Shown here: positions 21,074 through 23,412 of the stretch, one piece after another
Position numbering within the stretch: the stretch's first letter is position 1
Layout of the letters: every line of letters begins with the position of its first letter
Source: Rhizophagus irregularis
Lineage: Eukaryota
NCBI RefSeq assembly: GCF_026210795.1
Contig: NC_089429.1
Coordinates: forward strand, 372,001-436,000
Direction of reading: 5' to 3'
Length of the DNA: 64,000 bases
Program-made: the position numbers and the translations under genes
Notes under the pieces: generated by a model
The model's input: the letters and a program-made list of their open reading frames with translations, nothing else
What the model was told of the DNA's origin: nothing
Database searches by the model: none

Positions 21074-23412
21074 ATGTCGCACAAATACTTCGACCGCGAT
21101 TCCTCCAATTGGAATATATTAGACTTTTTGAATGCGTGTGACGTGGAGCCATTTGACAACAAGATAGATGTTTACCTAAAATCTCTTGAAATCATCTTTG
21201 ATCAAGAGCTAGGCACCCGGAGGGAAAAGGCGCGAGAGCACCTTGACAATTAATTATTTGTTTTATTTTATTTGTCCTTTGCATGGCTCCGGACAATTAT
21301 GTAGTTTAAAGGAATTGAACTCAGGGTTTGTGTATTCATCACCAGTGGGCGCTAGAACGGCAAGTAATAGTTTTCTTTTTTTGTGACATGACGAAGACTT
21401 TCTGGGTCAACGTCAAAAGGCTTCTGGCTGAGTCACAAAACCGGTGCTAGGCACGTGGGCTTTCTGGGTTTCCCGTGTTAAAGGTTTCTGGCTGACCTAG
21501 CATCGGTCCCATCGGGACACGTGGGGCTTTCTGGGTTCCCTGTGTTAAAGGTTTCTGGCTGACCGGTGGGGTATATGAAAATAGTTGAGATTTTTACTAA
21601 TTCAGAAAGTTTGTTATTTTTATATTTTAGGGAAGTGATCGCACACTTGCTAAAAAGTGGAATAAAGCGCGTAAATTGCATAAATCAAGTGGGACAACAA
21701 TTAACATTAATAATTCAGCAGTTTCTGCAATAAATGGAATAATACATGGCGGAATGGTCAATGGCAAAGCCTCCATGTCTAAGAAAAGAGATCACGAGGT
21801 ATTCAATTTTTAGTTAATCAGTAAAGTTATTTAATGCTAATGCCAATATTATTTTATGGTATAATGATTATTTGGCCTTGCGCTTCTATAGGACGAAATA
21901 GATAAATTTTTTCAAAGTCCCAATGATCAACAACCCAATCGGTTTAATAAGAAACTGCGAAAATCAGAGGCCACAGATGAATGTAAATGTGCACCGCAAA
22001 TTAACGATGATGACGATGATGAAATAGATAAAGAGATGTGTGAAGCAAGCATGTTAGAGTTCGAACGTACATTTCAAGGAATGCGAAAGGAAAAAAAGTG
22101 GTTTTTGGAATCGGGGAAATGTGTTGAGGACGAGTTGTATGCCTTCGGAAAACAATGCCAATTTGAACAGTATGTAAGGATATATTAAATTATTTTATTG
22201 CTATGAAATTTCTAATATATAATTTGCGTTTGTTTTCAGTTTGGCACATTCTTTCGTTATCGACCCCGATGACGAAACCTACTATCAAAACAAAGTGTTT
22301 ACTTCCGAAGAACTCGAAGAGATTCGTGAGACAGAATCAAAAGATCTTCCTAAGATGCCGATCGAATTATTGAAATATATCAGCTCTTTCCGAACGAAAA
22401 CAACGGAAAAATTACGGATAATGCTTGATAAACGACAGAACTGGGAAGGCAAAAACTTTGACAAGACCAAACACTTTGATTTTGACTGGATAAAACATAG
22501 CGTTCACAGTTTATTATTAGAATTTGAGTCCGGCACATTAAAGCAAAATCACTTGGAAACGTGGTACAATATCCATATCTGGTCACTAATAGATAAATCC
22601 TTCAACGAGTTAATAGGGGTGGATGTTGCCAGAGGGGAGTCGTGTAGCCTTGCTTCTGCGAAACGTAAAAATAAACATAGAGTTATTCAAGGATTGGTCT
22701 CAACAACACGAAAAGCACTCGGAAGAAGAGGTGATTTAATCTTAAGAAAAGGAATGTACGAATACGGTGCTTCTGAGGTTGGAAAGGACTACGAGGGAGA
22801 TAATGGGACAAAGTTACTTAGAGAAAGGGGTCTAAAAAGTCCGAAGATGCTTAAGGACATGTTGGTAGATTTGGGCAATTATATAAAGTGGGAAAGAAAT
22901 AAATTACGTCAATTGGAGCTAGTAAGCTTCATTCATGCTGGTAGTATGCTTTTAATCTGCCTATGATTTTGATAAATTTTGCCATAAATATTAACTATAT
23001 TATTATACAGGTCTTTTCATGATTTTATTACGTATTGATGCTCCTGCCGGCTATATGTGTAGAATAACGAGATCGAATACCAACCGATGTAGGATGTTTT
23101 GAGGAAGCTCTCAAATGTATGGTTTTGACTTGGAAAGCAAAGGTTAGTATCATACTATGTCATCACATCAATAGGATTCTGTCAAATACCTAACTATCTC
23201 AAAAACTTTAGGCGATTGTCCGTAAAACAATTGGTGTTATTGAAGGAATTAATGACGATGATGATGACTATGATGTATTGGAGAATTTGCAAGAAGCTGG
23301 TGTCCGTAAGCGTAAGGATTGTATCATTATTCCTAACTGCGTTAGGACTCCACAAAAAAAGCGGACAGTCCCGCAAACGTCGCAAGTTCGAAAAAAGAAG
23401 GAAAAGGAATAA
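21074..23412 (+). pseudogene. Second Crinkler-like gene with the same architecture; exon 1 broken by a ~100 bp insertion
   Basis: MSHKYFDRDSSNWNILDFLNAC N-terminus. C-terminal GRRGDLILRKGMYEYGASEVGK...KMLKDML (REase-like D...E motif). Probable GC donor (ACG|GCAAGT) near 21360, acceptor at 21630. TAA at 21251 is caused by the insertion. Confidence 0.7.
21379..21571 (+). ncRNA. Structured RNA element in intron 1: three tandem three-way junctions, each with two TTCTG-loop hairpins
   Basis: Outer stems TTTTGTGAC/GTCACAAAA, CCGGTGCTAGG/CCTAGCATCGG and TCCCATCGG/CCGGTGGGG differ in sequence but all pair. Invariant CTTTCTGGG and AAAGGYTTCTGGCTGA in each unit. Confidence 0.75.

Follow-up and report, generated by a model that had tools for sequence, protein, structure and literature searches.

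Gene organisation and retention of the first introns

The stretch of DNA analysed here (the window) comprises 64 000 nt of the Rhizophagus irregularis genome. Within it, a gene on the forward strand encodes a nuclease-like protein with a helical N-terminal header. The long first intron of this host gene carries an array of three RNA modules. A neighbouring nuclease-like gene spans 13.7–16.4 kb and has a header related to that of the host gene (11 of 31 residues identical). The features are listed in Table 1.

Table 1. Features of the host gene, its intron 1 array and the first intron of the neighbouring gene (positions are those of the window).
Feature	Position	Strand	Description and evidence
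Exon 1	21074–21359	+	Most of the helical N-terminal header domain; tblastn to P0037, P0006 and P0038; translation
Exon 1 insertion (~100 nt)	21253–21352	−	A-rich tail, retro-insertion-like; sequence, with boundaries inferred from homologous proteins
Intron 1 (271 nt)	21360–21630	+	GC..AG, mostly retained; RNA-seq joint 21358 to 21630, shiftable to GC..AG
Module 1	21379–21440	+	9 bp outer stem P1, A, P2 hairpin with AA/AA internal loop, AAA, 3 bp P3, GA
Module 2	21442–21505	+	P1 of at least 10 bp, P2, UUAAA, P3, GA; energy model disfavours inner fold
Module 3	21507–21571	+	9 bp P1, P2, AAA, P3, GA; 41 nt core 95% identical to that of module 2
AU-rich hairpin	21573–21625	+	Branch-point-like TACTAAT (21595–21601) in the loop; weak, prediction only
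Remaining exons	21631–23412	+	Longest coding exon, from 22241, carries D..E..E.GK nuclease motifs
Neighbour intron 1 (233 nt)	13958–14190	+	GT..AG, mostly retained; two three-way modules, 14012–14060 and 14061–14106

RNA evidence was drawn from polyA RNA-seq (three runs from two samples, about a quarter of each). The library was unstranded and intronic reads could derive from either strand. The joint that defines intron 1 removes 271 nt and, therefore, all three modules are intronic. However, this joint was rarely used. Spliced reads for intron 1 numbered 3, 2 and 7 in the three runs (12 in total), compared with 33, 36 and 34 (103) for intron 2 and 26, 31 and 40 (97) for intron 3. Read depth was ~18–24 over the modules and at most 3 in the other introns of the host gene. 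When intron 1 is retained, an in-frame stop codon is met 8 codons past the donor. That the array is mostly unspliced, within an intron, points to a cis-regulatory role.

This copy of the host gene is broken because exon 1 is interrupted by the ~100 nt insertion, and its reading frame ends with a stop at 21251–21253. The insertion is present in RNA reads and no joint skips it. It contains GAGTTCAATTC, which we take to resemble a B box, and repeated GACAATTA. Short contigs from run X1 suggest further copies, and the insertion is possibly a truncated SINE or LINE. RNA reads are also present upstream of the start codon (20950–21087), where a loose end at 21049 matches sequence near 20915–20945; a further 5′ intron or a longer leader is probable.

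The neighbouring gene is broken too, with a frameshifted exon 1 and a stop codon further on. Its first intron was spliced in 6 and 4 reads, compared with 18–50 (X22) and 6–39 (X23) for six later introns, and read depth immediately inside it matched that of exon 1. Hence, retention occurs at this gene despite a canonical GT donor. The two first introns are also long, at 271 nt (host) and 233 nt (neighbour) against 55–93 nt.

Elsewhere in the window, positions 16876–17474 form a MITE-like element, whose long terminal inverted repeats comprise 30 nt at 97% and a further outer 21 nt at 90%. On the reverse strand, a gene at 26879–30693 combines an MLKL N-terminal domain with a kinase, an architecture reminiscent of fungal innate immunity, and lies near the nuclease-like genes. 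Also on the reverse strand, similarity to Tet/JBP oxygenases at 39222–40295 is weak (E 0.0011) and falls short of the curated cut-off; hAT, Tc5 and MULE transposase fragments surround it.

Predicted fold of the modules and geometry of the junction

All modules share one order of elements: P1, the long hairpin P2, AAA, the 3 bp hairpin P3, GA and P1′. The TTCTG loops begin at positions 21400, 21422, 21462, 21486, 21529 and 21553. The sequence TTCTGGCTGA occurs three times in the whole window, each time inside the array. Hence, the three modules and six UUCUG loops of the original prediction, with their positions and outer stems, were recovered. The prediction had further held that the outer stems are unrelated in sequence yet still pair. 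Indeed, the arms have only 0–3 of 9 bases in common between modules, whilst each arm pairs with its cognate partner at 9 of 9 positions. Between arms of different modules, 0–2 contiguous pairs are possible (3–6 of 9 in total). In the thermodynamic model the outer stems form with pair probabilities of ~1.0, terminal pairs excepted. A naive calculation puts such pairing by chance at 4e-11, a figure that is overstated because the arms were picked by eye. Because their outer stems are unrelated, the three units would be able to fold independently of one another.

The 66 proposed pairs include 15 G-U and no A-C combinations, and the predicted folding energy of the intron is −83.0 kcal/mol for the sense strand compared with −54.6 kcal/mol for the reverse complement. 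Therefore, the fold belongs to the + strand. Among three GC-rich islands in the window, only the two first introns fold better on the sense strand. The z-score of the region was only −2.38, with 4 of 200 shuffles equally good. Our data support a real, strand-specific RNA structure that has no earlier description in the literature searched; what the original prediction missed was its setting in intron 1 of a nuclease-like gene.

Within the inner helices, the model reduces the loops to UCU triloops, each closed by a U-G pair. The P3 hairpins have little thermodynamic support throughout, with pair probabilities of 0.3–0.6 in modules 1 and 3. For module 2 an alternative inner fold is favoured, and the proposed P2 and P3 pairs have probabilities of at most 0.03. 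The P2 internal loops differ between modules. With 95% identity over 41 nt, the cores of modules 2 and 3 can add little independent covariation, most of which is found in the outer stems and the long hairpin of module 1; it is mainly for these helices that the covariation originally claimed for the locus stands.

A descriptor scan of both strands returned eight matches, three of which are the modules. A sequence-driven search found no fourth module (best other match E 0.57). No Rfam family matched at E up to 10, the only matches being chance similarities to snoRNA, sRNA, lncRNA and miRNA models far below gathering scores. Nor did the array look like a dispersed transposon at this locus. The array thus matched no known RNA family and gave no sign of being a mobile element, two of the outcomes against which the original prediction was to be checked.

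The arrangement of helices resembles a k-junction. According to the available text of PMC4005666, this is a three-way junction whose third helix emerges from the non-bulged strand, the pattern of the TPP riboswitch. Natural examples given in the available parts of PMC4005666 and PMC10573300 are the TPP riboswitch core and the DUF-3268 RNA. In the predicted secondary structure of the modules, P3 corresponds to the NC helix, P2 to the C helix and P1 to the third (T) helix. As in a k-junction, the non-bulged strand carries the third helix, which separates A1n from the C helix. The adenines at 2b and 1n and the G at 2n are also in place, each module having AAA on the 5′ side of P3 and GA on its 3′ side. 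The resulting combinations, from AAA-GGY and GCU-GA, would be A1b-A1n and A2b-G2n. All of these bases are compatible with peptides P0009, P0187, P0188 and P0140 from homologous genes (see below). Position 1b is A, rather than the standard G. The resulting A-A combination at 1b-1n is an accepted variant, reported in the available text of PMC4005666 for 16.89% of TPP sequences, including the E. coli TPP junction. The modules differ from a k-junction in that no connecting nucleotides precede the closing helix, and the NC arm is 3 bp long and capped by a pyrimidine loop. Unlike the TPP riboswitch, the array has no TPP-binding loops and is present as three tandem copies. We propose that the modules are k-junction-like, in which case the P2 and P3 arms are predicted to lie side by side.

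A riboswitch that senses a ligand, or a ribozyme that cleaves itself, could use a TPP-like junction to control splicing or decay, and would be expected to have the same topology of a closing helix with two arms. The location also fits, as both the position in an intron and its retention agree with fungal TPP riboswitches, which are placed in introns by the available text of PMC4005666 and PMC5640933. However, no Rfam model for the TPP riboswitch, or for the hammerhead, HDV, twister, pistol or hatchet ribozymes, matched the array, and nothing beyond chance was found among the other families. Tandem riboswitches are known, and the arrangement of the array is reminiscent of them. The TPP ligand-binding sensors are UGAGA and GCG; both are absent from the equivalent positions of the modules. 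The P2 internal loops vary from module to module, and the host gene is not metabolic. Furthermore, the order of CUGA and AAA around P3 is not that of a hammerhead core. Hence, we regard a riboswitch or ribozyme as improbable, and for the ribozyme raised in the original prediction nothing was found in support.

The CUGA motif abuts the closing stem in all three modules and could be read as a D box. Together with a C-box-like ATGACGA in module 1, this would suit intron-encoded RNAs of the box C/D snoRNA type. Conversely, modules 2 and 3 have no C box, no real Rfam match was obtained, and the D box is incompatible with P0187, P0188 and P0140; Gigaspora and Ambispora peptides exclude U at the D-box U position. 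The snoRNA reading is very improbable. Separately, a Smaug/Vts1 reading of CNGG loops was rejected on visual inspection, as the stems are in a register that does not suit it.

The modules of the neighbouring gene do not match the k-junction pattern. Their helices are in a different order, a permuted architecture with respect to the host array. Hairpins in both modules display U-[YGAG]-G loops, and the two modules are surrounded by an enclosing stem.

The encoded protein family and probable traces of the array in other genera

Proteins of Rhizophagus irregularis match the downstream reading frame at 99% identity. Its relatives belong to a large family in the Mucoromycota (1812 clusters at E up to 0.001). 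A structure model of the single exon (pLDDT 49.9) was not used. The model of P0117, an intact spliced homologue from Gigaspora rosea, has a pLDDT of 80 and consists of a helical header (residues 1–85), a disordered linker and an alpha/beta domain. The top fold match of P0117 was a mitoribosomal chain (Z 10.4, rmsd 5.1, 210 aligned). The alpha/beta domain also matched the restriction endonucleases BpuSI (Z 8.8, rmsd 3.7, 156 aligned) and DrdV (Z 8.5, rmsd 3.5, 143 aligned). Residues E430, E435 and K447 are near-invariant. Thus, P0117 is predicted to carry a restriction-endonuclease fold. The enzyme encoded by such genes is probably toxic. For the header, the best fold match was a weak one, to the L27 domain (Z 5.5), and a recognisable RNA-binding fold was not found. 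No Pfam family passed, header included, PDB sequence searches gave no match, and Foldseek gave none at E 0.001 or better.

The header is ~50% identical between the host gene and its homologues (29/56 for P0117, 21/39 for P0140), compared with 37–39% for the nuclease domain, which suggests that the array travels with the header exon. A comparison with P0187 places intron 1 within the header, before its last helix.

Header proteins with a restriction-endonuclease (REase) fold have been described as Crinkler CR-REase (Zhang et al., 2016, as cited in the available text of PMC6131194 and PMC11342252). The family studied here is alike in its variable header, its predicted restriction-endonuclease-fold domain, its D-E-K motif and its size within the Mucoromycota. 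It differs in that the header is all-helical and lacks an LFLAK or LxLWKV motif, and there is no sign of a secreted effector. The available text of PMC6131194 and PMC11342252 does not mention intronic RNA for CR-REase.

A nuclease downstream of tandem structured RNAs also calls to mind bacterial type III toxin–antitoxin systems. In ToxIN, CptIN and TenpIN, pseudoknot RNAs are paired with a nuclease such as ToxN. By analogy, the intron RNA could be cut into single modules that inhibit the nuclease. The array resembles these systems in being a tandem series of three independently closed units upstream of the nuclease coding region. Read depth is of interest here. At the host locus it dips to 4–6 at 21364–21409, just 5′ of the module 1 loops, and then rises to ~20 over the array; the dip may reflect an internal transcription start, RNA cleavage or an artefact of read filtering. 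At the neighbouring gene, depth roughly doubles over the modules, and fragment ends cluster near 14027–14029 and 14119–14145, by the borders of the structured part. However, short inserts, duplicates or GC bias could produce the same clusters, depth dips alone are no finding, and there are no fragment-end pile-ups at the host locus in polyA reads. The array also differs from the type III systems in being eukaryotic, intronic and made of three-way junctions, and no pseudoknot was seen by eye. The best folds for the protein are restriction-endonuclease-like, with no ToxN-like fold among the matches listed. An RNA antitoxin of the bacterial type is, on balance, distinctly unlikely. A eukaryotic variation would have a family of selfish REase-fold genes in arbuscular mycorrhizal fungi carry a k-junction array in intron 1, with loops matched to the cognate protein; the protein would bind or cut its own array, block splicing and free neutralising modules. 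We consider this quite unlikely.

Gene predictors often read into the GC-donor intron 1 of homologues. Conservation was assessed by back-translating homologue N-termini into the intron, a comparison of peptides rather than a DNA alignment. When 170 N-termini were compared with 21376–21575, the top seven were header-type proteins. Six of these exceeded all 40 dinucleotide shuffles: P0009 (score 30.3) and P0038 (19.9) of Funneliformis geosporum, P0007 (22.5) of F. mosseae, P0187 (29.4) of Gigaspora rosea, P0140 (19.7) of Ambispora gerdemannii and P0006 (17.9) of Diversispora eburnea. The seventh, P0054, did not. Protein P0187 is the spliced P0117 with an insert at the intron 1 position. In a degenerate fold test, P0140 (2/300), P0009 (7/300), P0188 (14/300) and P0059 (15/300) beat the shuffles. 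Conversely, P0187 did not (32/300), and P0054, P0006 and P0056 had no match. The full junction fits 13 of 177 N-termini, mostly outside intron read-through.

The peptides retain AA before and GA after P3. In Gigaspora and Ambispora the 5′ arm of P3 becomes GAC, which is a double change only given a permitted codon on the 3′ side. The Funneliformis peptides require position 5 to be U in both loops, and those of Gigaspora and Ambispora impose other pyrimidine loops. Thus, the identity of the six loops noted in the original prediction is a property of this locus that does not extend to other genera. A single P2 loop sequence satisfies two Gigaspora module copies that are translated in different frames (0.26% by chance, with the register hand-chosen). 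On the evidence of the peptides, Funneliformis, Gigaspora, Ambispora and Diversispora appear to have kept the modules, with stems that vary, loops that are pyrimidine-rich but not invariant, and a conserved AA/GA junction. The array is probably ancient. In Racocetra persica, the intron 1 read-through of P0056 (residues 62–115) holds a tandem peptide repeat, which suggests yet another type of repeated module in intron 1.

These traces bear on whether the array is a neutral relic, formed by local duplication of a hairpin or left by a mobile element in a long intron, with poor splicing a side effect. The 95% identity of modules 2 and 3 over 41 nt would be expected of such an origin, the window is rich in transposon fragments, and both genes are broken. 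Against this, the three unrelated outer stems each pair fully, and the peptides place traces at the same intron position in at least four genera. In addition, the reads of four sequencing runs gave no second copy of the array at 90% identity. A relic is therefore, in our estimation, a poor prospect, and improbable.

In other sequence collections, a pattern scan of GTDB gave no matches. One viral and 54 metagenome matches were treated as chance, because none is similar to the host gene or fold. Protein-based locus searches of viral and GTDB contigs found no relative.

Proposed control of intron 1 splicing

We tentatively favour a model in which the array is a protein-bound brake on intron 1 splicing, most likely bound by the product of its own gene or by the header. 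The k-junction-like modules would hold two pyrimidine-rich (UUCU-type) loops side by side. Occupancy of the array by a protein, most likely the gene product or its N-terminal header, would prevent use of the weak GC donor. Intron 1 would then be retained, translation would terminate at the stop 8 codons downstream and only a header peptide would result; hence, no nuclease would be made. Here, we infer the three-dimensional fold, the binding partner and the role of the structure in causing retention. The multivalent protein-binding array put forward originally remains the best idea for the candidate function of the modules. Repeated display of one loop is a feature of the two-site U1A PIE element.

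Besides the poor splicing of intron 1 itself, further observations favour the brake. The neighbouring gene repeats the pattern of retention with a shared loop of its own, and both Funneliformis loops change together. The sense-strand fold of both first introns, the read-through peptides and the k-junction-like bases also speak for it. The main difficulty is that both genes are broken in exon 1 and retain intron 1 nonetheless, so that retention does not depend on complete cognate protein made from these loci. The binder would, consequently, have to be a header peptide or a paralogue. The header's lack of a recognisable RNA-binding fold and the weak inner helices likewise count against the model. 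With no regulation involved, poor splicing could also result from the weak GC donor, the length of the intron or loss of 5′ coverage in polyA libraries.

Persistence of retention at two broken genes would also suit the same cis control of splicing with a host RNA-binding protein as the binder. The polypyrimidine-tract binding (PTB) motif is UCUU, such a protein could occupy the UUCU loops, and the loops are U/C-rich across genera. Alternatively, the kinked junction could be the target of an L7Ae-family protein, by the precedent of K-turns, which bind such proteins according to the available text of PMC4005666. However, the YGAG loops of the neighbouring gene, in their permuted architecture, are easier to explain by gene-specific partners. 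We rate a host binder as unlikely.

The proposed brake has parallels. Fungal ribosomal-protein genes carry autoregulatory intronic RNA structures, exemplified in the available text of PMC5640933 by yeast RPL32/L30 and the rpl7 motif. As in those cases, the structure at both genes studied here lies in the gene's own pre-mRNA, within an intron that is retained. The host gene differs in belonging to a large, variable, nuclease-like family rather than to RNA housekeeping, and in having six loops on three junctions. The available parts of PMC5640933 and PMC8216456 make no mention of Rhizophagus or Glomeromycotina. A ‘Hexapus’ motif of Rhizophagus was not confirmed, as it had no occurrences in the text of PMC5640933 and three supplements or in the other papers searched. 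We found no description of the array in the literature searched, in which subscription journals are mostly outside coverage.

We conclude that the array is a real and undescribed intronic RNA, tied to a nuclease-like gene family, whose function we infer. In the literature searched, almost no structured regulatory RNAs of arbuscular mycorrhizal fungi were found. These fungi have very large nuclease-like gene families, the control of which calls for an explanation. If ancient, an intronic array that accompanies one header exon and has gene-specific loops would offer a direct way to learn how such genes are held in check. It bears, too, on whether nuclease-like genes act as toxin–antidote elements in a multinucleate cell. 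The modules would add to the natural k-junctions a case other than riboswitches and rRNA and, as a 65 nt module with an 85-residue header domain, the system is tractable.
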